NCBI GenBank assembly: GCA_002923195.1
Contig: BDTH01000035.1
Location: 1,146 to 65,145 of the forward strand
DNA: 64,000 bases
DNA from: a bacterium BMS3Abin15
Lineage (GTDB): Bacteria; Patescibacteriota; Minisyncoccia; Moranbacterales; 2-12-FULL-40-10
Direction of reading: 5' to 3'
Made by a program: the position numbers and the translations under genes. Shown here one piece after another: positions 1-59,328 of this stretch. Below the pieces are notes generated by a model. The model was given only the letters and a program-made list of their open reading frames with translations, made no database searches and had not been told where the DNA came from. Each line of letters begins with the position of its first letter. Positions within the stretch are counted from its first letter, which is position 1.

Positions 1-2219
1 GAAAAGCAATTGTGGCTGATATGGAAAAGATGGGCTTAATTGACCATATTGATGATGACTATGTTCATAACGTTGCTGTTTGCTACCGATGTGGAACGGT
101 AATAGAGCCGATACCATCCAAGCAATGGTTTATAGCCGTTGATAAAAAATTAAAGCGACTGGGAAATAAATCGCTTAAAGAAAAAGCTGTTGAGGTCGTT
201 AAAAATGGAAATATAAAATTTACCCCGGAAAGATTTACTAAAAGTTATTTGGACTGGATGAATAATATGCACGACTGGTGCATCAGCCGGCAAATTTGGT
301 TTGGGCATGAAATTCCGGTTTATTTTAAAAATATTTCTTCATTAGATTTGCTGGAAAAATATAAAAAAGGGAAAAAAGAATTTAAAGTCGGAGAAAAAGG
401 TAGCCCCGTTCATGCTAAAAAAGAAAAAGAATATAGAGTTAGCCTCTCCAATGAAGAAGATTTTGAGTGGTTTATTAAAAACTTCAAAGAAAAAGAAGAC
501 TATGAATATGTTGATTATTTTGATGGGAAAAATCGAACAAGAGTTTCTGAGAAAAATAATAGCTTCACAATTATCCCTAAAAAATCCAAAAAGAAGGGTG
601 TCGTTGGTAAAAAAGGAAAGAAGGGAGAAATTGATGGAATTTATGCGACAATTGAGGAACGTTCTACTTCGGGACTTGCTCGTTACGAGGCTGAATTCAA
701 AGGAGGCTTACCTGAATATTTTAAAAATCATAAACAAATCTCTTCAGTAGATATTTTAGATTATCAAAATGAAGAAAAAACCGATTCTTCAATGTTAGTT
801 AGTTCGTCTGATCCTATTTTTGATGGATGGAAACAAGATGAAGACTCATTAGATACCTGGTTTTCTTCCGGAATGTGGACTTTTTCAACATTAGGATGGC
901 CTGATACTTTCAAAAACGGCAAAAAATCAGGTGATTTGGCCAGGTTTCATCCTACTCAGGTTTTAGAAACTGGATACGATATTCTGACTCTCTGGGTTTC
1001 ACGAATGATTATGATGTCTCTATTTGCCGTCAACGAAATTCCTTTTAAAAATGTTTATCTTCACGGGCTGGTTCGCGACGAGAAAGGAAGAAAGATGAGT
1101 AAGAGCTTGGGGAATGTTATTGATCCGCGTGAAGTGGCTGAAAAATATGGAACCGACGCAGTCCGCTTATCATTGCTTATCGGCAACACGCCAGGAAATG
1201 ATTTAAAGATGAGCGAAGAAAAAATTAGAAGCTTTAGGAATTTTACTAATAAGATTTGGAATATCAGCCGGTATTATAAAACAAATGTCCACTTAGACCA
1301 TAAGCAACCTACCAGGCCTACTTCGGAAAATAATATAATAGAAATTCCTCCGGGAGAATCAGAAAGAGCAATATGGCATAATAAGATTTCGAAAAATGCG
1401 ACACTCTCTGATAAATGGATTTTATTCAAAATTGGAAAGCTGATCAGTATTGTTTCCTCTGATATTGAAAATTTTCATTTTTCTCAAGCTGGAGAAAAAT
1501 TACACGATTTCACATGGAACGACTTTGCCGATTGGTATTTGGAAATAAGTAAAATTGAGAAGAATGAAGAAAAAAATATTATATTATCAAGCATATTAAC
1601 TGATCTTCTTAGGATGTGGCATCCTTTTATGCCCTTTGTTACTGAAGCCATTTGGAAAGAAATAGGAAATAACAAATTGTTAATGATCGAAAAATGGCCA
1701 AGTCAGGAGAAATATAATTTTATTTCAGAAAAATCCAGGCCCATTATATCTTTCGAGTTATTGCAAAAAATAATAATTGCTATCAGAAATGCTCGCGTAG
1801 AAAACAAAATTGATACTAAGAAAAAAATTAAAGTGATTATTGATACAAGAAATTCTGCATCGGGTGTTACTGAACTAGTTACTGAACAAAAGAATTTAAT
1901 CGAAAGCCTCCGAACAAAATGCGAAGTGGAAATCAAGAACGACGGAAAGAAAGTTCCCAATTCAATTCACAGAACGACGTCTGGAATTAATATTTACATT
2001 CCTACTGAAGGATTAGTAGATGTTGAAAAAGAAAAGAAAAGATCAGAAAAAGAAATAGAGAATTTGGAAAAACATATCGCTGGAATTGAAAGTAAATTGA
2101 AAAATAAGGGATTTTTGGCAAAGGCACCTGAAGAAATCGTAAATCAGCAAAAAGAAAGTTTAGAAAGAGCTAAATCTAAGCTTAAAGAAATAAAAAGACA
2201 TCGAGATAGTATCTCTTAA
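1..2219 (+). CDS. valS: valyl-tRNA synthetase, C-terminal ~735 aa (5' end lies outside window)
   Basis: Reading frame open to window start. KMSKS motif (GRKMSKSLGNVIDP), QDEDSLDTWFSS block and a C-terminal coiled-coil tail are typical of ValRS. Confidence 0.9.
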   Translation, partial: KAIVADMEKMGLIDHIDDDYVHNVAVCYRCGTVIEPIPSKQWFIAVDKKLKRLGNKSLKEKAVEVVKNGNIKFTPERFTKSYLDWMNNMHDWCISRQIWFGHEIPVYFKNISSLDLLEKYKKGKKEFKVGEKGSPVHAKKEKEYRVSLSNEEDFEWFIKNFKEKEDYEYVDYFDGKNRTRVSEKNNSFTIIPKKSKKKGVVGKKGKKGEIDGIYATIEERSTSGLARYEAEFKGGLPEYFKNHKQISSVDILDYQNEEKTDSSMLVSSSDPIFDGWKQDEDSLDTWFSSGMWTFSTLGWPDTFKNGKKSGDLARFHPTQVLETGYDILTLWVSRMIMMSLFAVNEIPFKNVYLHGLVRDEKGRKMSKSLGNVIDPREVAEKYGTDAVRLSLLIGNTPGNDLKMSEEKIRSFRNFTNKIWNISRYYKTNVHLDHKQPTRPTSENNIIEIPPGESERAIWHNKISKNATLSDKWILFKIGKLISIVSSDIENFHFSQAGEKLHDFTWNDFADWYLEISKIEKNEEKNIILSSILTDLLRMWHPFMPFVTEAIWKEIGNNKLLMIEKWPSQEKYNFISEKSRPIISFELLQKIIIAIRNARVENKIDTKKKIKVIIDTRNSASGVTELVTEQKNLIESLRTKCEVEIKNDGKKVPNSIHRTTSGINIYIPTEGLVDVEKEKKRSEKEIENLEKHIAGIESKLKNKGFLAKAPEEIVNQQKESLERAKSKLKEIKRHRDSIS

Positions 2220-2324
2220 CCGATACGAAACTACAAATGAGATACGAATCTGCGAACTTATTCGAATGTGCGCGTTCGCATTTCGCGAGCATATATTGTG
2301 AGCGAGCGCTATTCGCATACCATA

Positions 2325-2945
2325 ATGAGGCAAATTGAATCACTCTTTTTGGGAATCATTGCTGCGCTAGGAGCCGTAGTGTTGGAGCTTATTGTTTTGG
2401 TTATAATTTCAATCTTCGCTGACTATGAAACAGCATTAACTTCCGAAAGTCTGTTTTCTTTGAATGCTATGCCCAAAACGTTGTCTGCATTTCATTATCT
2501 ACTCTTGACTTCAGCAGTAATTGAGGAATCACTAAAATATGTAATGATAGTTAAAAGAGTTGAAGTATTTTCCCTTGATAGAAAAATAATTTTGAATTCC
2601 TTCCTAGTCGGACTTGGCTTCGCTCTTGTAGAAGTTGTACTGATTTATGGAAAAATAAGTAGTGGATCTGCAGAATTTTTTTATCAGAATATTGCAGAAA
2701 TAATTTTGATTCATGTTTCAACGGCAGGAATTATCGGATACTTCATCGCTACCCGAAACCCTAAAAAAATTAGAACATTCATCAAGCCGGTTGCAATAGT
2801 AGTATTTTTCCATCTTTTGTATAATCTTTTGGTTGTCTACCGCGATAATTATCTCGCAGACCCGCTTATCATTTCTCTATTGACAATACTTGTGGTAGTT
2901 AATATATTTAATATAATGGTGATAAACAGACGTCTTGCATCCTAG
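2325..2945 (+). CDS. PrsW-family-like intramembrane protease
   Basis: Polytopic membrane ORF with EESLKY, GFALVE and FFHLLYN motifs (the EExxK / FxxxE / HxxxN pattern of PrsW proteases). Start moved to internal ATG 2325 (MRQIESLF...). Confidence 0.55.
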   Translation: MRQIESLFLGIIAALGAVVLELIVLVIISIFADYETALTSESLFSLNAMPKTLSAFHYLLLTSAVIEESLKYVMIVKRVEVFSLDRKIILNSFLVGLGFALVEVVLIYGKISSGSAEFFYQNIAEIILIHVSTAGIIGYFIATRNPKKIRTFIKPVAIVVFFHLLYNLLVVYRDNYLADPLIISLLTILVVVNIFNIMVINRRLAS

Positions 2946-3036
2946 TAAATTCTGTACTATAATCAAAATACTGCTTAATAATCTAATTTTAATCTTTGAT
3001 CATTGATTTTTAATCATTGATCATCGGATAATACAT

Positions 3037-3528
3037 ATGGCCAAAGAAAAAAAATCATTTTTTGAGAAACTGACCGGAGCAAAGAAAATAGAGGACGAGG
3101 GCGAATCAATGCCTGTTTATTCTGACGATGAAGAAGCAGAAATGACAATGAACACCAGCACCACTCCTTCAACAGAAGAAAACTGGCCTAGTGACGCTGA
3201 AGGACAGCTTACTATTGATGTCTATCAAACTGAAAATGATGTGGTAATTAAATCAACTATTGCTGGCGTGAAGCCGGAAGATTTAGACGTCGCCATAAAC
3301 AACGATATGATAACAATAAAGGGAGAAAGGAAGAATGAAGAGGTAGTTGAAAATGAAAATTATTATTATCAGGAATGTTACTGGGGTTCATTCTCTAGAT
3401 CAGTAGTTTTGCCAGTAGACGTAATTGCCGACAAGGCTGAGGCATCTTTAAAAAACGGGATTTTAACAATTCGGCTTCCCAAAGCTGATACCACTAAAGC
3501 TAAGAAGATTCAGGTTAGAGGATTTTAG
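3037..3528 (+). CDS. small heat shock protein, Hsp20/alpha-crystallin family
   Basis: Alpha-crystallin domain pattern (LTIDVYQTENDVVIKSTIAGV...GILTIRLPK). Followed by a hairpin terminator. Confidence 0.85.
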   Translation: MAKEKKSFFEKLTGAKKIEDEGESMPVYSDDEEAEMTMNTSTTPSTEENWPSDAEGQLTIDVYQTENDVVIKSTIAGVKPEDLDVAINNDMITIKGERKNEEVVENENYYYQECYWGSFSRSVVLPVDVIADKAEASLKNGILTIRLPKADTTKAKKIQVRGF

Positions 3529-3550
3529 TTATAATATTCTTCATATAAAT

Positions 3551-3580
3551 AAAAAGGAATGCTGGGCATTCCTTTTTATA
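3551..3580 (+). terminator. rho-independent terminator after hsp20
   Basis: Stem ggaatgc / gcattcc (3556-3562 / 3566-3572) with loop tgg, followed by a T-run. Confidence 0.8.
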
Positions 3581-3676
3581 TTTTGTTTGGAATTTTTTCC
3601 ATTTTAAAGTATTCTTAAAATATATCACTTATTCATGCAATAAAATGCAAGAAAGGAGGTATAATAGAGTGTAGAA

Positions 3677-4954
3677 ATGAAAATAAGTTTCCATATTACA
3701 GTTCTAACTTTTTTTATTTTACTGCTATCACCAATTAGTGGTGTTTTTGCATCCGAAGAAAATTCCAAGGAATTAAAATTAATGATGGGCGAGTTGGAAG
3801 AAGCTATTTCTTATGAGGAGATTTCTCAATGGACAGTTATTAAAACTACTTTAATGAATGACAAAAACGCAAGGGCAGAAATTGAAAATATTCATTACTG
3901 TCCTACCGATCCTATCTTTTGCAGGTTGACAAAAACCTACCGGGAAAGAAATCATCTTGTAAAAAAGTCCGCGCGCATTGTAGAAAAAAAGGCGCTATAT
4001 TCTTTTTTAGAAGATTTGGGAAGAAGGGTAAATAAAGATCCTGTTGACGCAAAATTTGCAGTAGAAGACGAGAAAGTGTCTGCTTTTGCTTTCAGTAAGA
4101 ATGGAATGGAGCTTGACGTTGGCTCCAGTGCCAAGATATTGCTTGATGCGATTTCGCAAAAAAACCATTCTAATGAAAAGTTTCCGGAAGAAGTACACCT
4201 CGTTTATAAAATCATTGAACCAGAAATAAAATCAGAAGATATTGAAACTTTGGGAATAAATATACTTATCGGGGAAGGTAAGTCTAATTTTAGAGGTTCT
4301 CCGAAAAATAGAGTTCATAACATAAAGGTAGCGTCTAACAGATTCAACGGTGTACTTATAAAACCGGGGGAAGAATTTTCCTTTGTTGAGATCTTAGGTC
4401 CAGTAGATGAAGAGCATGGTTATAAAGAAGAATTGGTTATTAAAAAAGATAAGACTGAGCCGGAATTTGGGGGCGGAGTCTGCCAAGTTTCTACCACCAC
4501 ATTTCGAGCGGCAATTTACAGTGGAATGGAAATCACCGCCCGTCGTAACCACGCTTATCCGGTCGCTTACTATAATCCTCAGGGGATGGACGCAACAGTC
4601 TATATCCCCCGTCCGGATCTCCGTTTCATTAATAACACATCCGGACACGTTTTGATACAGACAAAAGTTGAAGGAACTGAGTTAATTTTTCAATTTTATG
4701 GAACCGACGATGGGAGAAGAATAGAAATAATAGGGCCTCGAATACTGGAAAGGAATCCAGATAATTCAATGAAGGCTACTTTTACACAAAAAGTATATGA
4801 CAAAGATGAAAATTTGATAATTGATGATGTTTTTAACAGCTCTTATGATTCCCCGGATAAATATCCTCATCCTGGAGAAGAAAAATTGACTGAAAAACCA
4901 AAAGAGTGGTCTAAGGGCGAGTGGAGAAGATATAAAAAAGAGCACGGACTATAG
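3677..4954 (+). CDS. VanW-domain protein with N-terminal signal/anchor
   Basis: Hydrophobic N-terminus. VanW-like core GGGVCQVSTTTFRAAIYSGMEITARRNHAY. Confidence 0.75.
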   Translation: MKISFHITVLTFFILLLSPISGVFASEENSKELKLMMGELEEAISYEEISQWTVIKTTLMNDKNARAEIENIHYCPTDPIFCRLTKTYRERNHLVKKSARIVEKKALYSFLEDLGRRVNKDPVDAKFAVEDEKVSAFAFSKNGMELDVGSSAKILLDAISQKNHSNEKFPEEVHLVYKIIEPEIKSEDIETLGINILIGEGKSNFRGSPKNRVHNIKVASNRFNGVLIKPGEEFSFVEILGPVDEEHGYKEELVIKKDKTEPEFGGGVCQVSTTTFRAAIYSGMEITARRNHAYPVAYYNPQGMDATVYIPRPDLRFINNTSGHVLIQTKVEGTELIFQFYGTDDGRRIEIIGPRILERNPDNSMKATFTQKVYDKDENLIIDDVFNSSYDSPDKYPHPGEEKLTEKPKEWSKGEWRRYKKEHGL

Positions 4955-5174
4955 CATGTTTATTGACTAAATGCTTTATTTTTGGTACTATCCACAATGT
5001 TACTTCAAATGATTTCTTCGTGATTATTGCGCTTTACGTCGCGTTTTCTATTACATACACTGTTGCTACTTTAAAAATATGCGCCCATAGCCCCGACGGA
5101 AAGTCGGGATCCCGACCAAAGCGTCGGGACTCAGTTATATATCCGATAAAAGCATGTACCGAATATTATTACAT

Positions 5175-5247
5175 GCGCCCATAGCTCAGTCGGTAGAGCA
5201 GTTGCCTCTTAAGCAAACGGTCGTAGGTTCGAATCCTACTGGGCGCA
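5175..5247 (+). tRNA. tRNA-Lys (anticodon CTT)
   Basis: Acceptor gcgccca/tgggcgc, D-arm tagctcagtcggtagagc, anticodon loop ctCTTaa, T-arm ggttcgaatcc. CCA not encoded. Confidence 0.85.
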
Positions 5248-5333
5248 CACTTGCCCCCGTAGTTCCCCGTAAAAATTTTCTTTGAAAATTAACGAGGCAG
5301 GCAACAAATAGAACAGGAATCCTCAATACGTAT

Positions 5334-5405
5334 GTCCTCGTAGTTCAACGGATAGAACAGGAGCCTTCTAAGCTCCGGATGCGGGTTCGATTCCTGCCGA
5401 GGACA
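5334..5405 (+). tRNA. tRNA-Arg (anticodon TCT)
   Basis: Acceptor gtcctcg/cgaggac, anticodon stem ggagc/gctcc with loop ctTCTaa, T-arm gggttcgattcc. Confidence 0.85.
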
Positions 5406-5437
5406 CAAAGTAAAATAAATAAAATGTTTTCCAGGTT

Positions 5438-5480
5438 CCCTGCCCGCCATCGGCTGCGCCGAAGGCGCTGGCAGGCGGGG
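5438..5480. repeat. GC-rich nested palindromic element (outer stem ccctgcccgcc/ggcaggcgggg, inner gcgcc-gaa-ggcgc)
   Basis: Hand-paired imperfect hairpin in the AT-rich tRNA spacer. Shares the cctgcccgc/gcgggcagg-type arms seen at 23897, 38050, 38224, 43091 and 62726. Confidence 0.6.
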
Positions 5481-5636
5481 ACTCCTAGTGAGGGTACAAA
5501 ACTGAATGGTTCGATTTTTACCCCGTACTAAACTGTGCTTTAGTGACGGGGCCTGTCGGGGGTACAAGAAAGCGAAAAGTATAAAGTATAAAATCAAATT
5601 ATTTTTTGTTTTACGCTTTTGGTTTTACGCTTTCAT

Positions 5637-5709
5637 GGCGGGTATAGTTCAATGGCAGAACACTGGTTTGTGGTACCAGGTACGAGGGTCCGATTCCCTC
5701 TACTCGCCC
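5637..5709 (+). tRNA. tRNA-His (anticodon GTG)
   Basis: Acceptor ggcgggt/actcgcc, anticodon stem ctggt/accag with loop ttGTGgt, T-arm gagggtccgattccctc. Confidence 0.8.
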
Positions 5710-5717
5710 AGAAAAAC

Positions 5718-5790
5718 GCGCTCGTAGCTCAATGGATAGAGCACTTGGCTTCGGACCAAGGGGTTGTAGGTTCGACTCCTGCCGAGCGCA
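5718..5790 (+). tRNA. tRNA-Arg (anticodon TCG)
   Basis: Acceptor gcgctcg/cgagcgc, anticodon stem cttgg/ccaag with loop ctTCGga, T-arm taggttcgactcctg. Confidence 0.85.
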
Positions 5791-5846
5791 CATTATGCGG
5801 GAGACCAAGAATTCCAGGTTCGATTCCTAGCGAGAGCATAGAAAGC

Positions 5847-5873
5847 AAAAATCCCTGTTTATCAGGGATTTTT
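5847..5873. terminator. bidirectional hairpin terminator between the tRNA cluster and the minus-strand pilus operon
   Basis: aaaaatccctg-tttat-cagggattttt, flanked by an A-run and a T-run. Confidence 0.75.
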
Positions 5874-5903
5874 GTTACTTTTATATAGAACCAATTATTT
5901 TAC

Positions 5904-6704
5904 TTACTCATCATTATTTTCTTCTATTAATTGAAAGATGCTATTTAGCGTTTTAAATTTATCCTCGTATGCACTTTTTCTGCTTTCAATTGCTTTAACT
6001 ACATCTTGAAATTTGTCTTCCCTGAAATTAACTTCCACTTTTTGAGAAGCAGTGTATTGCTGTTTTTTTTCATAGCTCCACTGAGAATTGTACAGCTTTT
6101 GATACCAGAAGAGAATGCCCGCAATAAAAGTCAAGAAAAATAGCAAAGCAAATATTACACGGTAGTGCCTAAACCAGAATTCTCCACAATCAGAAACTAC
6201 CTTTTTAATATTAATATTTTTAAAGTTTATCTTTTTTAAATTAGATTTTTTTGCCTTTGTCTTTGCTTTTATCTTTATCTCCGCCTTTGGCTTTAATTTA
6301 GAAAAAGGCCACTTAAAAATTCTTTTTAAAATATTTTTCTTGCCGGTATCGCTTTCCTCAGATTTTTTCACCTTGGAATCTTTAGTGCTGGCACCCTTTT
6401 TATCACCTTTATCACCGACACTCTTTGCATCAGCAATTTTTTTACCAGTATCTTTTTTTTCAATGCCTTTTAAATCAATATCACTTTTATTAACACTCTC
6501 CTTATCGATGTTCTCCTTATCAACATTTTTCTTTTTTACATTTTCTATATTAGATTCCTTATCATTGGCGCTTTTTTCACCACCTTTTTTATTGTTAATA
6601 TTTTTTTCACCAATAGTATCTTTCTTCGCATTTTTCATGCTAGTATTTTTTTCATCAGTATTTTCTTTGTCAGACTCAGGTTTTGATACTTTTTTTATAC
6701 CCAT
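5904..6704 (-). CDS. membrane protein with ~130-aa Lys/Glu/Asp-rich low-complexity N-terminal region, last gene of the pilus cluster
   Basis: One TM helix (VIFALLFFLTFIAGILFWY) after a K/E/D/N-rich repetitive region. Same strand as, and immediately downstream of, the pilO-like gene. No family recognised. Confidence 0.5.
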   Translation of the reverse strand: MGIKKVSKPESDKENTDEKNTSMKNAKKDTIGEKNINNKKGGEKSANDKESNIENVKKKNVDKENIDKESVNKSDIDLKGIEKKDTGKKIADAKSVGDKGDKKGASTKDSKVKKSEESDTGKKNILKRIFKWPFSKLKPKAEIKIKAKTKAKKSNLKKINFKNINIKKVVSDCGEFWFRHYRVIFALLFFLTFIAGILFWYQKLYNSQWSYEKKQQYTASQKVEVNFREDKFQDVVKAIESRKSAYEDKFKTLNSIFQLIEENNDE

Positions 6705-6739
6705 TTTATTTGTTTTATATTTCAGTTTGGTAAAACTTA

Positions 6740-7390
6740 TTACTTAAGATAAAATACGATTTCTAAAATCGAACTTATGTCTCCGGTTTCAAAAAACTTT
6801 TCTTCTTCATCGGATGCTCCTCCTGGAGATATGAAAGGGGAAGATCCGGAGCGCCGACTAGTAAGACTTAGCTCCTTGTTTGATATATTTATAGAAATAA
6901 TGTCGGACCAATATCTCATATTTTCTACCTTGCGAATAAAGTCAACTATACTGTTGTAGCTTCCGGAAAGTAAGATGTTCATTTTTAAATAATTTTCGCT
7001 TGGCAGATTGGCGATTAGACTTTCTTCTTTTTCTTTTTTTGAGTTCTCAGACTTTTTTTTCTCTTCAGCGCTGATTATCACTTTATTATTTGTTTCCTCC
7101 GCCACTTTCTCTATTCCTTCTATAAGCGCCACCAAATTATTAGGGGATACCAGAATCTGAATATTTTCTTTCTCTCTTTGTATCATTTCAAACTGCTCTT
7201 TTAGTTTAGCTAGTTCGTTTAGTTTTTTCATCCGTCTTTCCTGATCCACTGTTTTTTCCTGAACCTTTTCAATTTTCGAATTGACACTTTTAGTAAATGG
7301 CTTAATAACAAAATTAAACACTGCTGCCAATATAAGGACATACACTATTATAATTATTAATTCTTTGTATTTATTCCAGATGGTTTTCAT
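6740..7390 (-). CDS. PilO-like type IV pilus assembly protein
   Basis: N-terminal TM helix plus coiled coil. Position directly after pilM-pilN. Confidence 0.5.
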   Translation of the reverse strand: MKTIWNKYKELIIIIVYVLILAAVFNFVIKPFTKSVNSKIEKVQEKTVDQERRMKKLNELAKLKEQFEMIQREKENIQILVSPNNLVALIEGIEKVAEETNNKVIISAEEKKKSENSKKEKEESLIANLPSENYLKMNILLSGSYNSIVDFIRKVENMRYWSDIISINISNKELSLTSRRSGSSPFISPGGASDEEEKFFETGDISSILEIVFYLK

Positions 7391-7403
7391 TCCTATTTGT
7401 TAT

Positions 7404-8051
7404 TTATTCTTCACTTATTACTTCTTCGTTCGCTATTTCTTCAGGCTGATTAATTAAGTCTTCATCAACAGGATTTTCTGTTTCCTTTTTCGCCACTACT
7501 ATTCCTCTTAGGCAATCATCATTGACTTTAAAAATTATTTGGAAGGCTACATTTTCCTTAAATACCAAGTTTGAAAGTGGAACAATGGCATTGCTAAAAC
7601 ACTCGGAAATATTGATGCTTTCTTGAAGTTTAAGCAAGTCATTTCTCGTATCAGCCTTGCCCAATAAAGTAATGCTGTAATCCTTTGTTATTAGGTCGGT
7701 GAGAATTATTTTTTCTGTCACAATGCTGTCGAGATCATAAAAAACGCTTAGCCAGCGCAGATTGCTTTGCTGGATATCGTGAAATAAGTCTACTTCTGAA
7801 TTCATTTGCTTGAATTCGCTTTCGTATTTTTTCAATTCTTGATAGCTTGGTTGCATTTGTTCAAGACTATGCACTTTTTCTAAGCTATTTACCTGAATTT
7901 TTAATATAAAATTGGTGCTTATGATAATACTGACAAAAACTGCGATTATAAAAAAAAGCATGATCTCCTGCCAGACAATTAGCCGGAGTCTTTTCTTTCT
8001 TTTTATTTCTTTCTTTTTATCTTCTGGGAGAAGATTAATAAAAATTCTCAT
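7404..8051 (-). CDS. pilN: PilN-like type IV pilus assembly protein
   Basis: INLLPEDKKKE... N-terminus followed by a single TM helix. Overlaps the pilM stop. Confidence 0.65.
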   Translation of the reverse strand: MRIFINLLPEDKKKEIKRKKRLRLIVWQEIMLFFIIAVFVSIIISTNFILKIQVNSLEKVHSLEQMQPSYQELKKYESEFKQMNSEVDLFHDIQQSNLRWLSVFYDLDSIVTEKIILTDLITKDYSITLLGKADTRNDLLKLQESINISECFSNAIVPLSNLVFKENVAFQIIFKVNDDCLRGIVVAKKETENPVDEDLINQPEEIANEEVISEE

Positions 8052-20712: not shown

Positions 20713-20831
20713 CGGGAGAACACCTGGTTGCCATTGTTCCACTCATTCGGATTCTCAACGGAGCAAGCATCCACGCTCCAGCCGACGCCATCCCAGCTGC
20801 AGCGGACCGTGCTAAGCACACCAGTCGTTCT
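20713..20831 (-). repeat. DGR template repeat (TR)
   Basis: About 115-119 nt match to 21168-21286. This copy carries A (minus strand) at nearly all mismatched positions and contains AAY codons (NPNEWNNGN). Confidence 0.85.
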
Positions 20832-21148: not shown

Positions 21149-21811
21149 CTAAGATTCAGAGGAATTGCGGGAGAACACCTGGCCGCCACTGCTCCACTCA
21201 TACGGACTCCCAAAGGAGCAAGCACCCACGCTCCAGCCGACGCCATCCCAGCCGCAGCGGACCGTGCCAAGCACACCAGTCGGACAGTAAATATAGAAAA
21301 TATTGGCATATCCGTTAGTGAGTAAATCGCCTTTTTCGCCGTTTGGCTGCATTTCCATAAGGGCAAACATTTCAGCGAGGGTGGTTTCCGCTTTTTTGTC
21401 TCCACCCAGTTCGGCGATGATTGGCTTATCAACCGAACTCTTGCGCAATTTGTGATAACGAAGCGTGATTTCTGGAATCACCTCCTCGGTTTTACCAAGG
21501 AAATTTTTCCGGAAATTATCTCCAAGATAGGAAATTTTCACTTTCGCTTTCTTGCTCGTGTCTACGACAAAATGGTCGCGGGCGATGAATTCTTCGGTTG
21601 TCGCAGGGATAGTGACAGTACTGACGAGATCGAGAATATTTTCAGATCTCGGTTCAGTTTCTTGTCTACCTTGAATTGCTCTTATAAAAAGAGCAATTGC
21701 GTCAGTGGTGTTTTGGATAACCCACTGGCCATCTTCCTTTGATAATGGAGCAAGCTTATTTTGGTGCTCCACTAATGATGCTACTAATTTGGGAATCTGT
21801 TGTTCGGTCAT
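21149..21811 (-). CDS. DGR variable (target) protein, 220 aa, VR at extreme C-terminus
   Basis: SD aaggagg upstream of the ATG. C-terminal 40 aa (PTGVLGTVRCGWDGVGWSVGACSFGSPYEWSSGGQVFSRN) are encoded by VR. No signal peptide or TM helix seen. Confidence 0.85.
   Translation of the reverse strand: MTEQQIPKLVASLVEHQNKLAPLSKEDGQWVIQNTTDAIALFIRAIQGRQETEPRSENILDLVSTVTIPATTEEFIARDHFVVDTSKKAKVKISYLGDNFRKNFLGKTEEVIPEITLRYHKLRKSSVDKPIIAELGGDKKAETTLAEMFALMEMQPNGEKGDLLTNGYANIFYIYCPTGVLGTVRCGWDGVGWSVGACSFGSPYEWSSGGQVFSRNSSES
21168..21286 (-). repeat. DGR variable repeat (VR)
   Basis: Cognate of TR. Differs at TR adenine positions (A to G x9, A to T x1 in the 115-nt core). Confidence 0.85.
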
Positions 21812-22978: not shown

Positions 22979-23207
22979 ATACGAGAAAAGAGGATATTGA
23001 ATTATTAGAATTGGTGTAAAGACAGACTAAAGAATATTAAAAAAATAATTGGGGGCTAAATTTTACCTGGTGACAGAGCAGGGATCACTACTAGCCTCGA
23101 CTAACGCGAGTCTGGGAAGACAGGGCAAGTATCTCCATTAGATCTTAAATTCTATGACCCCAGTAGCAGAACCTTCGGCTCGCTACGGGGCAGGCATCCC
23201 CGTCCTA

Positions 23208-24428
23208 CTAAATCTTAAATTCTATGACATCGCCATCAGCGACTATATATTCTTTCCCCTCTGTTCTCATCCAACCTAACTCCTTGGCCTTTGCCCAAGA
23301 GCCTGCTTCTAATAATTTTTCCCAGTTAATTATATCGGCTCGGATGAATTTTTCCTGGAAATCATTATGAATAGCCATTCCTGCTTCAGGTGCAGTAGAA
23401 TCTTTTTTGACTGTCCAAGCCCGCGTTTCGTCCTCGCCTGTGGTAAGAAATGTAATAAGGCTTAATAATTCATATGATTTCAAAATAAGCTTATTAAGCC
23501 CGGTTTCCAAATTCAATTCTTTTTTTTCTTTTTCCGTCATTTCTCCCATCTCTTCTTCAATTTTAATGTCTAGTTTTACCCCCACACCAAATTTATTTTT
23601 TATAACAATATTATCAGTAGAATAATCCGTATATTTATCTTTAAAATTATCACTTCCGGTAGTATTTTTGGTGTGGGGGTGAATATAACTTTTATTTTCT
23701 AATCCTTTTGGAAGTTTTTCATCAAAATCTGAAATATTGTAGGCATACAAAAATGGCTTCATCGTAAGTAAGGATAATTCATTAACCGCAGCATCAACAA
23801 TTTCATCTTTCATATCAAGCTCTGTTTCATTGGCTAATTTTTCTTCTTCTAATGTTTTTTTAATTTTTTCTGTAATTTCCAGCTTCTTCGCCGCTTCCCC
23901 GCCTGCAACGCTATGCCAGCCCGCAGTAGATACAGCGTTTCTGGCGGGCGTAGCATTGCGGGCAGGTTTGTCATTCCCGCGTGCTTCTTTTTGCAACTTT
24001 TCTATTCTTTTATTTACTGTTTCAAGATCAGCTATTATGAGCTCGGCATTAATAATCTCTATGTCGTTTAAAGGATCTATCTTGTTATGTACGTGGGTAA
24101 TTTTAGAATTCTCAAATACTCTTACCACTTGAATAATAGCATCCACTTCCCGAATGTGAGATAAAAACTTATTTCCCAATCCTTCGCCATCCGCCGCGCC
24201 CTTAACTAGGCCTGCGATATCCACAAATTCAATAACAGTGGGAATTATTTTCTCACTCTTTGACATTTTAGCTAATTTTTCCAAGCGCTCATCCGGAACC
24301 TTCACTACTCCCACATTGGGTTCAATAGTACAGAAGGGATAGTTATTTATATCCACCGGATTATTAGTCAACGCTTTAAATAAAGTAGACTTTCCCACAT
24401 TAGGAAGTCCGACTATTCCAATTTTCAC
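23208..24428 (-). CDS. ychF: ribosome-binding ATPase YchF (Obg-like GTPase family) carrying an in-frame GC-rich insertion
   Basis: [21 protein letters not shown] (GTG start), [10 protein letters not shown]-terminal TGS-like RAWTV...GDVIEFKI. 406 aa. Confidence 0.9.
23897..23966. repeat. nested GC-rich palindromic element inside the ychF coding sequence
   Basis: cccgcctgcaacgct...gcgtagcattgcgggcagg arms nearly identical to the 43091 element, with a second GC palindrome (ccagcccgc...ctggcgggc) in its loop. Translates in frame as [23 protein letters not shown]. Confidence 0.7.
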
Positions 24429-24596
24429 CCCGTTAGAAATTTTATAAGCCTATTGCTAAAAAACAACAACACTTAAAAAATATATAATTAATTAATTATA
24501 ACCCAGTTAGAATGTTAAAATTTCTAACGGGGTTCATGACATCTATTCACAAATAGTAAGTAAATGAATACTACACTAATGCAACAACATAATCAA

Positions 24597-27130: not shown

Positions 27131-27320
27131 TTGACACCATTCTTATAATTGTATTAATTTACTAAGAACTGTTTGCCCCGTTAGAAAATTGTGTGAGGCA
27201 TGAAACTTATGGCCACAAGAACTGTTTAAGCTTTCAACTAAACATAGTAAATCGTATAACATATTTCTAACGGGGTTAATCTGTTCTTTTTTAATTTTAA
27301 ATTCACAGGGAGGTATAATT

Positions 27321-37034: not shown

Positions 37035-37301
37035 TATATTTAGAATATCTAAGGTTTATTATTAGCTCAATTTACCAGGTTTCATTCTATCAAAACAACG
37101 AGAAGAAGTCAACCCCGCACTAATTTTGCACCAAATACGCTTTTAATCGGTGCTCTAGCACCAGTGCAAATTTAGTGCGGGGTCAAGTCCAATACGTATA
37201 GAGTATATCATATAAGAATAAGGGTATCAATCACTGACGCTATTGCTCATTTGAATATTTTGTGTTACTATATCACTTTCCAATTAAATGTTAAGCTTAT
37301 A

Positions 37302-37757: not shown

Positions 37758-38009
37758 ATGTATTACGTATATGTATTAAAAAGTTTAAAAGATAAGCAGA
37801 TTTACGTTGGTCATTGCAATAATTTAAAGGGTAGAATAAGGGATCATAATCTGGGACTTGTAAAATCTACAAAACCGAGAAGGCCATTAAAGTTGATATA
37901 TTATGAAGCATGTAATTTATTAGAAGATGCCGCAAAGAGAGAAAAGGCATTAAAATCAGGATTTGGAAGAGCATACCTAAAAAGAAGACTGAGCGACTTA
38001 AAAAAATAG
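37758..38009 (+). CDS. stand-alone GIY-YIG nuclease-domain protein, 83 aa
   Basis: YYVYVLKS...IYVGHCNNLKGRIRDHN...REKALK pattern. Wedged between smpB and ssrA. Confidence 0.8.
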   Translation: MYYVYVLKSLKDKQIYVGHCNNLKGRIRDHNLGLVKSTKPRRPLKLIYYEACNLLEDAAKREKALKSGFGRAYLKRRLSDLKK

Positions 38010-38049: not shown

Positions 38050-38085
38050 CCCGCCCGCATCGCTACGCGAAGCGTTGCGGGCGGG
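38050..38085. repeat. GC-rich nested hairpin abutting the tmRNA 5' end
   Basis: Perfect 10-bp stem cccgcccgca/tgcgggcggg with an inner acgc-gaa-gcgt hairpin. The 3' arm overlaps the first nt of ssrA. Confidence 0.65.
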
Positions 38086-38521
38086 GGATGCCTAGCTTCG
38101 ACAGGTTGCTCATTTAAAATAAGCAGGTCGACCATTATAGTTGTGTCGTAAAACCATCTATAAAAGTAGATAACTGCAAACATTATCTCAAAGGTAAAAG
38201 CTACATTTGCGCAAGCATTTGCACCCGCCTGCATCGCTGTTGCGTAAGCACTGCGGGCACGGCCAGCTTTTGCTTCTGCTGTTGCTTAATTGCAAACAGC
38301 CATCGAACTGCTAACTCCTAATAGGCAGATCTCGGTGTCAATCATTAGGATAGTTTAAGACATTTTCTTTGGGTGTTTTAAACGAAAGTTTGCCAAAGAC
38401 GAGTAGTAAAAGTTTTTGTTTGTTTTTCATTTTGCCGCTTGTAAAAAATAAATAAACTAAGCTTGTAGATTATTTCATCTGAACAATTTTGGACGCGAGT
38501 GCAATTCTCGCCATCTCCACC
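38084..38521 (+). ncRNA. ssrA: tmRNA (SsrA)
   Basis: 5' GGGGAUGCCUAGCUUCGACAGG pairs with 3' CAUCUCC-ACC (G3:U pair). T-arm GGACGCGAGUGCAAUUCUCGCC. Resume context auaacuGCAAAC. Tag ORF 38176-38247 reads ANIISKVKATFAQAFAPACIAVA*. Adjacent to smpB. Confidence 0.9.
38224..38262. repeat. 39-nt GC-rich palindromic element inside the tmRNA tag reading frame
   Basis: About 29/39 identical (hand alignment) to the 39-nt element in the SpoU gene (43091-43129). Contains the functional tag stop codon. Confidence 0.6.
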
Positions 38522-38570
38522 CTATAAACTCCGACTTTGTATCGGGGTGTGTAATAATTAAACCAAATAT

Positions 38571-42715: not shown

Positions 42716-43246
42716 TTATTTTAATTTACTAGTTATTTCATACCCGACAATTCCAAATGCCACAGAAACGTTAAGAGACTTCTTCTTTCCTCGCATAGGA
42801 ATTTCAACAATTTTGTCACATTTAGCCAGAATTTTTTCATTTACTCCCCTGAGTTCATTGCCAACTATCAGCGCCATAGGAAATGAGAGTCTAAAATTTT
42901 TGTAACCAACGCTTTTTTTGTCCTGTTCTATGGCGACAATTTTTACTCTTTGCGATTTCAGTTTTTCTATTAATTTCCCTAGACTTTTTATTTTCTCCCA
43001 AGAAACATTTTCCTCTGCCCCCAGGGCAGTCTTAGCAATCATTTTATGAGCCCTTGTTAAATATAATGGCTTATTATTACTACCAAGAGGCCCGCCTGCA
43101 ACGCTTGAGCGTAGCGATAGCGGGCAGGGCGTGTAGCCAGTCAGATATATACTGCTAACGCCTATTCCGTCAGCAGTCCTAAAAATCGATCCGACATTAT
43201 AAGCGCTGCGAATATTGTGCAAAACAATGAAAAGCTCTTTTTTCAT
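42716..43246 (-). CDS. SpoU/TrmH-family RNA 2'-O-methyltransferase with an in-frame GC-rich insertion
   Basis: NIRSAYNVGSIFRTADG, LIVGNELRGV, IPMRGKKKSLNVSVAFGI motifs. Confidence 0.8.
   Translation of the reverse strand: MKKELFIVLHNIRSAYNVGSIFRTADGIGVSSIYLTGYTPCPLSLRSSVAGGPLGSNNKPLYLTRAHKMIAKTALGAEENVSWEKIKSLGKLIEKLKSQRVKIVAIEQDKKSVGYKNFRLSFPMALIVGNELRGVNEKILAKCDKIVEIPMRGKKKSLNVSVAFGIVGYEITSKLK
43091..43129. repeat. 39-nt GC-rich palindromic element inside the SpoU/TrmH coding sequence
   Basis: cccgcctgcaacgcttgagcgtagcgatagcgggcaggg. Exactly 13 codons, translated as CPLSLRSSVAGG within the ORF. Confidence 0.7.
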
Positions 43247-45586: not shown

Positions 45587-45600
45587 TTTATTTTTGTACA

Positions 45601-45714
45601 CCCCCACACCAATTTTGGTAAAGGGTTTTATAACACCAATAGCTAGAGCTAATAGACAGATTTGCTTTATAATTCCTCATTGTCTCAAAATTTATTTTGA
45701 AATTGGTGTGGGGG
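45601..45714. mobile_element. ORF-less 114-bp unit bounded by perfect 14-bp inverted repeats CCCCCACACCAATT / AATTGGTGTGGGGG (MITE-like)
   Basis: IRs at 45601-45614 and 45701-45714. The same IR pair brackets the GIY-YIG gene at 59329-59625. The right IR supplies the last 8 codons (FTPTPISK*) of the 45692..46711 ORF. Confidence 0.55.
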
Positions 45715-46711
45715 TAAAGATTTCCCTAGCCTCATCCCAAACATCTGGGTGGTCTTTTTGTGTTTTCAGCCAATACCACCACTCCACTCCCCAGAGATAG
45801 GCTTTATTAAACCCGGTCTTCTTGGCGAATTCTATATTCTTTTTAAGCCTCTCGGCATCCATCGCTTTTAGCTGTTTTTCCAAGGGCGCTCCCGCAACCC
45901 ATTCATCCAGCCATGGCTCCCCTTGCAATTCCGCAATGATAACATCATTTTGATTAGCAAATTTTTTGATTAGCCAGTATTTAAACTTGAAAAAATTAGG
46001 TCCGATGGGATATTTAAAATGCCCGACTTTCTCGCTGTAAACATCAAAATACATAGTAGTCCCGAAGATATCGGCCCGCTTGGCCGCTTGAATCCATAAG
46101 CTAAGCTCACCGCTGTCAGTCACTATTATAGGGCGAGTATTATCAATGTTCTTAATTATCGCTATTTCTTGGTCTAATAATTCTGCGTCTATAAGGGGGC
46201 AAACACCGAACTTTAAAAATGGTTCGTTTTCAGCCTGCCAGTGGGAAATCGCCGGATTTTCCTTGTAACGATTGACTGTTATGGAAACCATTTTCTTTAA
46301 AGCTTCCTCTCTTTTTAAATCATTGTTTTTTGCCCATTCCGGTATGTGGCACTCCGGCCAGCGGGGAACTTTTTGCCCCACCACTAATACAATTTTCACA
46401 TTTCTTTTTTCAGCCTCTTCTATCTGCCAATCCACATCGGAAAAATCGTATATTCCTTCCTCTTTTTCAACCAGGTCCCAATAAACCGGAAGGCGGATGT
46501 CAGAAACTTTCAAATCATCAAGGATGGCCAAATAAGTTTCTTTCCAATCAAGCCCTAATGACTGGGCGTGGCGATGGGAAAAAGTGACACCCAGGCTAAA
46601 ATCTTTTTGGGGTATTTTTACCGGAAAATTAAAATAGATAAAAGCGATAATAATTATTGCAACTATTACGGCCAGCATGATAAGTGAAATTTTGATAAAT
46701 TTCTTAAACAT
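45692..46711 (-). CDS. TIM-barrel glycoside hydrolase-like protein (GH5/GH42-like), membrane anchored
   Basis: N-terminal TM helix. VYWDLVEKEEGIYDFSDVDWQIEEA...WQAENEP pattern typical of clan GH-A. Confidence 0.55.
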   Translation of the reverse strand: MFKKFIKISLIMLAVIVAIIIIAFIYFNFPVKIPQKDFSLGVTFSHRHAQSLGLDWKETYLAILDDLKVSDIRLPVYWDLVEKEEGIYDFSDVDWQIEEAEKRNVKIVLVVGQKVPRWPECHIPEWAKNNDLKREEALKKMVSITVNRYKENPAISHWQAENEPFLKFGVCPLIDAELLDQEIAIIKNIDNTRPIIVTDSGELSLWIQAAKRADIFGTTMYFDVYSEKVGHFKYPIGPNFFKFKYWLIKKFANQNDVIIAELQGEPWLDEWVAGAPLEKQLKAMDAERLKKNIEFAKKTGFNKAYLWGVEWWYWLKTQKDHPDVWDEAREIFTPTPISK

Positions 46712-56573: not shown

Positions 56574-56806
56574 CCCGTTAGATATAAGTGAGTTATTTAA
56601 TCCTGCCAGACATTAACAGAATATCTAACGGGATTCATAATCCAATTCTACCCCATTAAAATATTTTGGTAAACCCGCACACCAAATTTTTGTGTGCGGG
56701 CAAAGATTTAACCCCAGAACCACAGCTCCGCTGACTACGAGGCAGGCGGGGCAAGCCATAAAAAAATAATCCCGCCAAAGCAATGGATTATATAGACATA
56801 AATAAG

Positions 56807-59325: not shown

Positions 59326-59328
59326 ACA

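Follow-up and report, generated by a model that had tools for sequence, protein, structure and literature searches.

A short GC-rich hairpin element inserted in frame in conserved genes and its association with small GIY-YIG nucleases

Overview

The 64-kb stretch of DNA analysed here (the window; GC content 37%) carries two conserved genes, ychF and trmH, each of which contains a GC-rich palindromic block that stays in frame. Both blocks belong to a dispersed family of short DNA elements (32-39 nt) that are GC-rich and imperfectly palindromic. The element nests within itself, occurs across several phyla, passes a reading-frame filter when it lies inside genes, and is linked to genes encoding GIY-YIG nucleases and to tRNA and tmRNA genes at their 5' ends. 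With a probability of about two in three, the hairpin family is the cognate repeat of small single-domain nucleases similar to the recently described Ssn nucleases, nuclease and hairpin together forming a selfish unit that spawns solo hairpins. The first-pass annotation of this DNA had interpreted the blocks as a selfish palindromic repeat, dispersed in the genome and inserted in frame in a lineage-specific way, in the manner of Rickettsia palindromic elements (RPEs), and this core claim is supported.

In-frame copies in ychF and trmH

The window YchF protein is 100% identical to that of 'bacterium BMS3Abin15', and its relatives belong to Moranbacteria/Parcubacteria. The ychF gene (positions 23208-24428, minus strand) encodes 406 aa, compared with 348 aa for typical orthologs. 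Its in-frame GC-rich palindrome had been annotated as a unit of about 70 nt starting at 23897; the description is accurate, but the start is 23898 and the block (23898-23966, minus strand) measures 69 nt. The coding strand gives 23 residues (PARNAT...HSVAGG), 11 of which come from an inner copy of 33 nt (23916-23948, plus strand; covariance model score 33.4 bits, E = 4e-4) that is inserted in the opposite orientation and splits an outer 36-nt copy into two parts (23898-23915 and 23949-23966). The plus strand of the block reads CCCGCCTGCAACGCTATG, CCAGCCCGCAGTAGATACAGCGTTTCTGGCGGG and CGTAGCATTGCGGGCAGG in succession. The outer element is interrupted at its midpoint, between ACG and CAT, by the inner 33 nt, so that the nesting noticed at first reading is exact, with the second copy in the loop of the first. 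This nested insertion leaves at most 1 nt of ambiguity, and no target-site duplication of the kind expected of a MITE is present at the ychF site.

A YchF ortholog with 85% identity (P0002, locus L001) contains a single un-nested, uninterrupted 36-nt copy at the same codon, while three orthologs with 68-78% identity (P0003, P0005 and P0006) have an empty site, as do loci L002 and L003. Carriers are interspersed with non-carriers, and the insertion point moves by one to two codons among lineages (between G and N, N and K, NK and E, or NKK and G). The YchF loop has gained copies independently in several lineages; an ancient insertion followed by precise loss could be a partial cause of the repeated filling of this one loop. 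The view taken at first reading, that YchF of E. coli and B. subtilis has no such segment, agrees with the empty sites and with solved YchF structures, in which the segment has no counterpart (in the alignment with Haemophilus influenzae YchF, 1JAL, query positions 158-178 are left unmatched). An AF2 model of YchF (24-sequence alignment; poor, with a mean pLDDT of 48) places the insert in a loop between helices 119-151 and 175-194. The ychF gene also contains a second palindromic element, at 23578-23680, that is unrelated to the GC-rich hairpin.

The second host gene (42716-43246, minus strand) encodes a TrmH/SpoU-family methyltransferase of 176 aa, whose orthologs have about 160-163 aa. The 39-nt in-frame unit annotated at 43091-43129 (minus strand) is present as described; it scores 50.4 bits and encodes PCPLSLRSSVAGG. 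The 13 residues are absent from the TrmH ortholog P0123 (identity 73-79%, according to the measure used), and the insert falls within a region that does not align with solved structures. An identical trmH element is found in a separate assembly (Logan DRR093005, L215), and in one assembly the gene has been truncated by the gene caller. On alignment, the closest orthologs of YchF and TrmH lack the blocks, which identifies both as lineage-specific insertions, as had been predicted.

Sequence and fold of the element

In the window, the 14-mer CCCGCCTGCAACGC has 9 matches with at most three mismatches, against 1.03 expected, and paired arms no more than 110 nt apart occur at six loci, against 0 in 50 shuffles. 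Matches to the covariance model at E <= 4e-4 are located at 38050-38085, 43091-43128, 38224-38261, 5439-5479 and 23916-23948; an Rfam scan at the elements returned no repeat-family match. Units measure 32-39 nt, and the nested arrangement 69 nt. When single-stranded, the canonical DNA copy folds into a 32-nt hairpin preceded by a tail of 4 nt, CCTG (dG -12.6 kcal/mol, z -4.0), and compensatory changes occur at offset pairs 11:21 and 16:26. Pairing along the full 36-nt palindrome was rejected as the structure, its central pairs (11:26 and 16:21) being mostly unpaired across variants. Identity with a CRISPR repeat, an integron attC site or a terminator was also rejected, because the copies are solitary, lie in frame within ORFs and lack the defining motifs.

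The tmRNA locus and remaining copies in the window

The tmRNA gene (ssrA; 38084-38522, plus strand; RF00023, 125.5 bits), which ARAGORN did not detect in the window, hosts one copy of the element and is abutted by another. The internal copy (39 nt; 38224-38262, minus strand; covariance model match 38224-38261) lies in frame within the tag reading frame. A UAA in its loop now terminates the tag (ANIISKVKATFAQAFAPACIAVA, then the stop), and taking out the 39 nt gives back a 24-aa tag colinear with that of the relative at L003. Thus, the tmRNA degradation tag has been rewritten by the insertion, with its AVA end retained. The abutting copy (38050-38085) is a perfect palindrome of 36 nt (53.6 bits; dG -18.5 kcal/mol, z -5.4) that starts 40 nt past the stop codon of a GIY-YIG gene, and the tmRNA begins with the final G residues of this copy. 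Loci L135-L138 share this layout.

Four related hairpins, at 5438, 38050, 38224 and 62726, had been annotated as non-coding. This does not hold for the one at 38224, which is in the tmRNA tag frame, whereas the copy at 38050 abuts the tmRNA and that at 5439-5479 (41 nt, divergent; plus strand; 35.6 bits, E = 1.6e-4) is intergenic, between tRNA-Arg(tct) and tRNA-His. The fourth, a perfect palindrome of 20 nt (CCTGCCTGCCGGCAGGCAGG, 62726-62745), is only a marginal match (14.4 bits, E about 1.2); it possibly represents the arms alone, and its membership in the family is doubtful.

Distribution and reading-frame filter

Further copies were recovered both in the window, with the covariance model, and by searches of many other genomes, as anticipated at first reading. 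The canonical 36-mer is CCTGCCCGCAATGCTACGCATAGCGTTGCAGGCGGG, and near-identical copies of it occur across phyla: carriers include Patescibacteria, Verrucomicrobia, Kiritimatiellia, Lentisphaerae, MAGs labelled as low-GC Gammaproteobacteria, and some viral contigs. At least 120 stretches were found in species-representative genomes, with locus GC contents of 0.31-0.64, and 11 in viral contigs. All matches are MAGs, SAGs or metagenome contigs; a BLAST search of the 36-mer against the GenBank phage and PLSDB plasmid collections returned no match. Taxonomic labels of MAGs can be wrong, but the high-GC flanks show that many of the matches are not misplaced CPR contigs. The first-pass annotation knew of no such family in CPR-type genomes. 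The literature search likewise found no earlier description of palindromic elements inserted in frame in CPR (sequence strings matched unrelated primers only), but the family is not confined to CPR.

Unrelated genes, RNA genes and intergenic DNA all contain copies, which occur in either orientation and in at least three reading frames. Hosts of in-frame copies include UvrC, RNR, GluRS, AtpG, ThiI, MurD, ValRS-type and UvrA-like proteins, among others. Among elements in low-GC loci, those with a length divisible by three are internal to long ORFs in 19 of 53 cases, compared with 0 of 18 for other lengths (Fisher p = 0.0017). The four asymmetric copies in the window are all oriented along the leading strand. 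However, this bias does not extend to a wider set of 132 copies, taken from fetched loci 3 kb or more in length, which divide 73:59 with respect to local GC skew (p = 0.26) and 69:63 with respect to gene orientation. Without a significant strand bias, a replication-strand-specific mechanism finds no support.

Association with GIY-YIG nuclease genes

The gene upstream of the tmRNA (37758-38009, plus strand), located between smpB and the hairpin, encodes a single-domain GIY-YIG nuclease of 83 aa (PF01541, E = 1e-15) and is the candidate cognate nuclease; besides PF01541, its product matches only one other family, weakly and in an overlapping region. It belongs to what is termed below class A. 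A second GIY-YIG gene (PF01541; ORF 59357-59611, 84 aa, class B) is found within ACCCCCACACCAA inverted repeats (59328-59626, minus strand). Apart from PF01541, the two proteins match weak families only, in overlapping regions. Their homologs have 74-83 aa; NCBIfam gave only weak partial matches to them, and the search for a solved homolog found none. The unit at 59328-59626 is the gene-carrying form of a second palindromic family, the ACCCC inverted repeats, of about 75-115 nt.

The family is linked to nuclease genes in both directions of search. Among loci selected by the hairpin, the most frequent protein clusters (8 loci each) are GIY-YIG nucleases and a generic ABC-ATPase, of which the GIY-YIG nucleases alone adjoin the element; seven of the nine GIY-YIG genes in these loci have an element within about 100 nt. 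The reciprocal test used 80 metagenome loci picked by GIY-YIG homology only, with a four-sequence alignment as query. A hairpin lies within 150 nt of the gene in 25 of the 80, usually inside a duplicated 5' fragment of a tRNA, and ACCCC inverted repeats flank the gene in 34. Over the 250 kb of these loci, about 31 of 34 hairpins fall within the roughly 10% of sequence that adjoins the gene.

The nucleases form two classes, one associated with hairpins (class A) and the other with ACCCC inverted repeats (class B), and the two associations are never mixed. The classes also cluster by sequence, the nearest classified neighbour being of the same class for 57 of 60 proteins. For 18 of 24 class-A genes a tRNA gene lies no more than 200 nt away, and the hairpin is carried on a duplicated tRNA 5' fragment; the cassette 'tRNA 5' fragment, hairpin, GIY-YIG gene, intact tRNA' recurs in different phyla. 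Of the GIY-YIG loci, only some 30% contain a hairpin. Where loci were selected by the hairpin, most copies are not within 8 kb of a nuclease gene, and any action on them would necessarily be in trans. From these associations we infer that the GIY-YIG nuclease binds or cuts the hairpin and drives its spread.

Comparison with known systems

The system matches the kind formed by Ssn nucleases and their hairpin repeats, described in 2025, although the sequence and behaviour of the hairpin differ. Ssn proteins are single-domain GIY-YIG enzymes that bind hairpin repeats as single-stranded DNA and cut beside them (Chenal et al. 2025, PMC11893778). The repeats flank the genes for these enzymes and include NTS/dRS3 in Neisseria and 'Ssn-related motifs'; Rickettsia and Wolbachia are among the repeat-rich genomes, and 2% of NTS copies are inside genes (PMC11893778). 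Here too, a protein of about 80-95 aa consisting of the GIY-YIG domain only is encoded beside or between dispersed hairpin repeats of 20-50 nt: the window proteins have 83 and 84 aa, close to the size of about 94 aa of single-domain Ssn enzymes, and a copy flanks the window gene 40 nt downstream. Other shared features are that each nuclease subfamily has its own repeat, that the repeat-gene-repeat layout resembles an insertion sequence (here in the ACCCC inverted-repeat family), that hairpin orientation is set by a short conserved single-stranded flank, and that the stem core CCCGC/GCGGG resembles NTS. However, the Ssn-related consensus HGTCWYN(0-2)YYVSBRHN(0-5)WNVSBRGN(0-2)RNCYNB has 0 matches on either strand of the window, and the hosts of the present family (Patescibacteria, the PVC group and others) lie outside the discussion of that paper. 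Moreover, this family is often in frame in housekeeping genes and in tmRNA, whereas NTS is rarely in genes. The hairpin-associated genes here lie at tRNA and tmRNA 5' ends with a duplicated tRNA fragment, and their Ssn-like activity is predicted.

RPEs are dispersed palindromic elements of 100-150 bp that are both intergenic and in frame in conserved protein genes and have proliferated in a lineage-specific manner (PMC1779305). The present element likewise is a dispersed palindrome that occurs between genes as well as in frame within protein genes, to which it adds a peptide. RPEs have been reported in RNA genes too, and we know of no mobilising enzyme established for them. Thus, the in-frame, dispersed and selfish behaviour recognised at first reading is indeed RPE-like. 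By its size the element is not an RPE, being far shorter, and no sequence homology between the two is apparent. RPEs are AT-rich and known from Rickettsiales, while the hairpin is 32-39 nt, GC-rich and near-identical in several phyla. In size, the ACCCC inverted-repeat family (about 75-115 nt) is nearer to RPEs than the GC-rich hairpin is.

REPs and REPINs are also short imperfect palindromes in many copies, nested or clustered, and are thought to be moved in trans by a single enzyme recognising ssDNA hairpins. Unlike the hairpin described here, which is often intragenic, common to several phyla and linked to a GIY-YIG nuclease gene, they lie outside genes, are species-specific, are passed on vertically and come with a 5' GTAG-type motif and a transposase of the Y1 HUH type. 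GC clusters of yeast mitochondria are GC-rich palindromes of about 30-40 nt in an AT-rich genome, intergenic as well as in frame in var1; they are organellar, unrelated in sequence and not known to be linked to a nuclease gene. Among free-standing GIY-YIG homing endonucleases (the Seg proteins of phage T4), SegB is encoded in the phage tRNA region. A GIY-YIG gene beside tRNA genes with flanking homology is a likeness to the Seg genes and is consistent with spread by cleavage and repair; Seg proteins, however, have at least 200 aa with DNA-binding domains and double-stranded targets, compared with a catalytic domain alone of 83-84 aa and a hairpin repeat here.

Proposed mechanism and alternatives

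If the hairpins are the cognate repeats of these nucleases, nuclease and hairpin would make up a selfish unit, typically 5' of tRNA or tmRNA genes, that crosses phyla, and solo hairpins would be its non-autonomous derivatives. Solo hairpins may be copied to new sites after nuclease-induced single-strand breaks and repair. Exposed hairpin loops would be preferred targets, a preference that would account for the nested copies and for a copy in the loop of a tmRNA helix in a relative. Gene-internal copies would persist only if their length is a multiple of three, if they are read in one of four stop-free frames, and if they land in a tolerant loop; in YchF the loop in question would be the turn that joins the helical domain's two long helices. 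Enzymes of the GIY-YIG type catalyse DNA hydrolysis but neither strand transfer nor ligation, so the copying step is not accounted for by the nuclease.

A bolder reading, which we advance tentatively and with the odds somewhat against it, is that the 36-nt hairpin and the GIY-YIG protein of about 80 aa constitute a previously unrecognised prokaryotic mobile element spreading by nuclease-driven 'hairpin homing'. Such an element would move horizontally across Patescibacteria, the PVC group, intracellular-type Gammaproteobacteria and some phages, colonise tRNA and tmRNA 5' ends by duplicating their first 13-25 nt, and seed solo hairpins genome-wide into single-stranded loops, among them in-frame positions within genes for essential proteins and within the tmRNA tag.

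The best of the competing explanations, though an unlikely one, is that the hairpin has no dedicated enzyme and spreads through host recombination, template switching or natural transformation, as has been suggested for the GC clusters of yeast mitochondria, the GIY-YIG link being a by-product of common homing to tRNA and tmRNA 5' ends or of host use of the hairpin, for example in restricting incoming ssDNA. The distance of most copies from any GIY-YIG gene and the need for ligation, which is beyond GIY-YIG enzymes, are in keeping with this, as is the demonstrated role of Ssn in Neisseria, which is to modulate transformation and not transposition (PMC11893778). However, the 36-mer is nearly identical from phylum to phylum, which speaks for a conserved protein that recognises it, and the strict coupling of nuclease class to repeat type and the conservation of the tRNA-fragment/hairpin/GIY-YIG/tRNA cassette in different phyla also count against this explanation.

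Less likely still, the elements could be REP- or REPIN-like and moved by a RAYT or an IS200/IS605-type Y1 (HUH) transposase, with GIY-YIG genes co-located through a shared preference for tRNA-proximal sites. Short imperfect palindromes of REP-like size that fold as ssDNA and nest in hairpin loops would fit such a system, and the Ssn study itself likens Ssn systems to IS200/IS605 and REPs (PMC11893778). Yet no Y1 HUH gene flanked by the repeats was found: an IS200 TnpA query gave one match in 1.29 Mb of fetched loci, and about 130 hairpin-selected loci contain no recurrent transposase family. The element alignment also lacks a conserved 5' GTAG-type tetranucleotide, strand bias is absent, and the GIY-YIG adjacency is specific and reciprocal, with nuclease subfamilies following repeat type.

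It is very improbable that there was no insertion and that the segments are ancestral to YchF and TrmH or are convergent, host-selected regulatory or terminator hairpins. One loop is filled in several YchF and TrmH lineages and the peptide end SVAGG recurs, which would fit this reading, but a single nucleotide sequence occurs in unrelated genes, frames, orientations, RNA genes, intergenic DNA and phyla, the closest relatives have empty sites, the insertion point differs among lineages, one copy is nested inside another, and the segment is missing from solved YchF structures. Least credible of all is an assembly or sequencing artefact (a hairpin chimera or a contaminating oligonucleotide in MAGs), for although every match comes from MAGs, SAGs or metagenome contigs and none from GenBank phages or PLSDB plasmids, a second, independent assembly contains an identical element, the copies derive from the work of many laboratories with various assemblers, always keep the frame inside ORFs and diverge with compensatory changes, and relatives have orthologous copies in common.

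Implications

In-frame palindromes in essential genes have been a Rickettsia curiosity for 25 years, to our knowledge with no known mobilising enzyme. A much smaller element acts likewise in CPR, which have the most reduced free-living-size genomes known, and across several phyla. This almost invariant element is coupled, physically and evolutionarily, to a defined nuclease subfamily, and because of that coupling the mechanism can be tested with one small protein and one oligonucleotide. If 'hairpin homing' is true, it offers a concrete enzymatic candidate for the movement of RPE-like protein-coding palindromes. For annotation, YchF, TrmH, UvrC, RNR, aminoacyl-tRNA synthetases and other proteins contain spurious segments of the 'PARNATHSVAGG' type. 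The Ssn family is under development as programmable ssDNA cutters, to which the hairpin and its GIY-YIG protein would add a nuclease/site pair. The distribution of the element is also relevant wherever horizontal transfer between CPR and other bacteria is estimated.

GC-rich elements in the window

The window has a GC content of 37%, and its YchF is 100% identical to the YchF of 'bacterium BMS3Abin15', followed by Moranbacteria/Parcubacteria-type CPR bacteria as relatives. The first-pass annotation had described two GC-rich blocks lying in frame within ychF (23208-24428, minus strand) and trmH (42716-43246, minus strand), and both their positions and their reading frame were borne out. Such elements exceed chance: a 14-mer arm allowing up to three mismatches gives nine matches versus 1.0 expected, and paired arms occur at six loci versus none in 50 shuffles. 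A covariance model run over the 64 kb recovered five significant copies and a sixth, marginal one; there were no further matches. The trmH element recurs in identical form in a separate assembly of this population.

The element is no simple palindrome. In the full-palindrome register, the central pairs are mostly broken across variants, while positions 11:21 (AU, GC and UA, seven each) and 16:26 (18 AU, 10 UA and 1 GC) covary, with scores reached in none of 500 shuffles; the alignment was hand-assembled from unique variants and its counts are indicative only. The two helices are mutually exclusive, and the predicted single-stranded (ssDNA) hairpin contains 16:26: for the canonical copy, folding gives a 4-nt tail (CCTG) at the 5' end and then a 32-nt interrupted hairpin that includes this helix (dG -12.6 kcal/mol, z -4.0).

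Insertion into YchF and TrmH

The YchF of the window has 406 amino acids versus 348 in typical orthologs. Residues 158-178 are without counterpart in solved YchF structures, the alignment with H. influenzae YchF (1JAL) jumps from residue 159 to 158, and a low-confidence AF2 model places the insert in a loop between helices 119-151 and 175-194. Two relatives have an empty site, which at the codon level reads E-S-R-S-M-N-Q joined directly to E-S/A-R/G-K-K-L, and the closest relative (85% identity) carries one 36-nt copy (N-N-K-[PARNTTHSVAGG]-E-A-I-K-K-L). The ychF of the window carries this 36-nt copy with an inner copy of 33 nt, in the opposite orientation, lodged precisely between the ACG and CAT in the middle. 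The block is an element within the loop of another element, as the first-pass annotation had suggested, and the inner one was gained after the split from the 85%-identical relative. The 13 residues of the trmH element are absent from the TrmH ortholog P0123 (73-79% identity by two measures), which together with the empty-site YchF relatives upholds the claim of lineage-specific insertion. That the blocks in the window are insertions of a dispersed element is virtually certain.

Among 119 close full-length YchF homologs, seven carry the element, all in the same loop, and, apart from the P0001/P0002 pair, the carriers all have non-carriers as their nearest neighbours. The insertion point varies among lineages by one or two codons (between G and N, N and K, NK and E, or NKK and G). 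TrmH carriers are likewise scattered, and two of them (P0121 and P0122) have tandem or nested copies. Scattered carriers could also stem from an ancient gain followed by precise losses, a reading we do not favour; judging from these sequences, the pattern probably reflects several separate gains into a tolerant loop.

Other in-frame additions occur among the relatives (for YchF, in P0003, P0045, P0060 and P0053), including a 7-aa insert of ARLSAGKDPW type towards the C-terminus of YchF, a IVGTDLVSVQKGQAQG insert in the YchF P0053, and a tandem array of three HNVAGGPARNAT units in a UvrA-like ORF (locus L111); they suggest that more small element families exist. In the Logan DRR093005 assembly of the same population (L215, 3001-3327), gene calling yielded no more of trmH than its C-terminal 108 aa, with the start placed beyond the hairpin, so automatic annotation may be degraded by such elements. 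The exact 176-aa TrmH product of the window is absent from the homolog search results.

Distribution and reading frame

The exact two-arm pattern occurs in at least 120 stretches of the species-representative genome collection. Hosts among the matches listed include many classes of Patescibacteria, Verrucomicrobia, Kiritimatiellia, Lentisphaerae, low-GC MAGs labelled Gammaproteobacteria and one single-cell genome. Locus GC among these matches ranges from 0.31 to 0.64, so the high-GC matches are not misplaced CPR contigs. The in-frame, RPE-like (Rickettsia palindromic element) habit proposed earlier stands, and with several other phyla among the matches listed the family extends well beyond CPR. 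Viral contigs contributed 11 stretches with the element; the GenBank phage and PLSDB plasmid collections yielded no match.

The commonest forms are the 36-mer CCTGCCCGCAATGCTACGCATAGCGTTGCAGGCGGG, two 36-nt variants and a 32-nt form. Many copies lie within long ORFs, where the favoured frames encode PARNATHSVAGG or LPAMLRIALQAG. In low-GC loci, long ORFs enclose 19 of the 53 copies whose length is a multiple of three and none of the 18 copies of other lengths (p = 0.0017). Host proteins include UvrC, class II ribonucleotide reductase, GluRS, ATP synthase gamma, ThiI, MurD, a ValRS-type synthetase and a UvrA-like ABC protein.

Copies in tmRNA

The tmRNA gene of the window (38084-38522) was identified by Rfam and was not called by ARAGORN. 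A 39-nt copy lies within its tag reading frame (38176-38247), so the label 'non-coding' originally given to the copy at 38224 has to be withdrawn. With the copy removed, the tag reads ANIISKVKATFAQAFAPAFASAVA up to its stop and is colinear with a relative's tag, ANFISKVKASFARAFVPSFASALA; with the copy present, the stop is a UAA in the element's loop, after ...FAPACIAVA. The tag is unusually long (23-24 aa) and its new stop comes from the hairpin; retention of the C-terminal AVA suggests continuing selection on the tmRNA.

Relatives (L135, 2808-3289; also L136 and L138) share the smpB, GIY-YIG, hairpin, tmRNA order of the window. Their tmRNAs carry a canonical 36-mer within the loop of the first pseudoknot hairpin, a site different from that in the window, and the L135 tmRNA has an extra CCCCGTTAGATA-type element near its 3' end.

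GIY-YIG genes associated with the hairpin

Clustering of ORFs from hairpin-selected loci identified one small recurrent protein adjoining the element, a single-domain GIY-YIG putative nuclease; seven of nine such genes lie within about 100 nt of the element. The window encodes two, one between smpB and the tmRNA-abutting hairpin (37758-38009) and one (59357-59611) enclosed by ACCCCCACACCAA inverted repeats, the whole copy spanning 299 nt (59328-59626). No recurrent transposase was found in the hairpin-selected loci, and an IS200 TnpA query (validated by one strong match) found a single gene in 1.29 Mb.

The reciprocal test used 80 metagenome loci (250 kb) selected by GIY-YIG homology alone. 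A GC hairpin lies within 150 nt of the gene in 25 of them, and about 31 of the 34 hairpins fall within the roughly 10% of sequence adjoining the gene. The loci form two classes without overlap: 24 with the GC hairpin, of which 18 have a tRNA gene no more than 200 nt away and some others adjoin a tmRNA, and 34 in which ACCCCGTTA-type inverted repeats enclose the gene, only one being near a tRNA gene. The proteins group accordingly, the nearest classified neighbour belonging to the same class in 57 of 60 cases. In the GC-hairpin class, a cassette found in different phyla comprises a tRNA 5' fragment of 13-25 nt with the hairpin inserted in the D-arm, then the GIY-YIG ORF, then that tRNA again in intact form; in a second layout the hairpin lies immediately 5' of a tRNA or tmRNA, and the RNA takes its first nucleotides from the terminal G residues of the hairpin. 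The element's linkage with a GIY-YIG subfamily, and with the 5' ends of tRNA and tmRNA genes, is specific and reciprocal.

Other repeats in the window

A second palindromic family, unrelated to the GC hairpin, consists of ACCCC inverted repeats (ACCCCCACACCAA, ACCCCGTTAGAAA, ACCCCGCACTAAT) of about 75-115 nt with an AT-rich interior; copies lie at 23578-23680, 24427-24533, 27176-27276, 37112-37183, 45600-45715, 56566-56640 and 59328-59626. One is in frame within ychF, encoding a segment of roughly 35 aa that starts with HPHTK and ends with FGVGV, and relatives have HPVK...FNGV versions at this and another site. Another abuts the ychF start, the GT of the GTG start codon coming from the repeat. 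The repeat-gene-repeat layout occurs in 34 of the 80 GIY-YIG metagenome loci.

Directly after the ychF stop (23141-23229) comes a GC-rich insert, about 50 nt long (CCCAGTAGCAGAACCTTCGGCTCGCTACGGGGCAGGCATCCCCGTCCTACT), with a direct repeat of 17-19 nt (ATCTTAAATTCTATGAC) on its flanks that duplicates the last ychF codons; this long target duplication marks it as a third type of insertion. Two neighbouring minus-strand ORFs contain near-identical GC-rich segments (20759-20813 and 21214-21283; 55-70 nt; GGAGCAAGCAYCCACGCTCCAGCCGACGCCATCCCAGCYGCAGCGGACCGTGC), which may represent either a protein segment that is repeated or a further element. Within positions 1-8000, GC skew and prevailing gene strand flip sign near 6 kb, at a four-tRNA cluster (5175-5791), which would fit a replication terminus or, failing that, a replichore boundary.

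Proposed mechanism and relation to known systems

Insertion, nesting, an in-frame filter and wide distribution are established for the element. We put the probability of a functional coupling between the family and the GIY-YIG clade at about 0.75. The nuclease would recognise the hairpin in ssDNA, and repair of the breaks it makes would place copies of the element at new sites, with a preference for single-stranded ones. Solo hairpins would be non-autonomous derivatives. Since GIY-YIG enzymes do no more than hydrolyse DNA, the model is weakest at the copying step. We give even odds to the nuclease driving the spread.

Ssn nucleases, single-domain GIY-YIG proteins (CDD cd10448; 94 aa in N. meningitidis), are reported to bind their hairpin repeats (NTS/dRS3, 'Ssn-related motifs') exclusively in ssDNA form and to cut alongside them; such repeats flank the nuclease genes, much as in an insertion sequence (Chenal et al. 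2025, PMC11893778). Rickettsia and Wolbachia are among the genomes rich in these repeats, NTS copies rarely lie within genes (2%), and Patescibacteria are not mentioned (PMC11893778). The putative nuclease and hairpin of the window, known here from sequence, share this architecture; however, the hairpin does not match the published Ssn-related motif consensus, and its intragenic habit and tRNA-fragment cassette are absent from PMC11893778. The RPE-like reading of the first-pass annotation is supported as to behaviour, with no sequence homology apparent, but not as to size, RPEs being 100-150 bp long (PMC1779305). A horizontal-transfer study predicted movement of GIY-YIG genes from Patescibacteria to other bacteria (PMC12455944), which fits the cross-phylum distribution of the element. 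The GC hairpin and its GIY-YIG gene are a variant of the recently described nuclease/hairpin-repeat systems, with an unusual intragenic, cross-phylum habit, and the pair offers a clear experimental handle.
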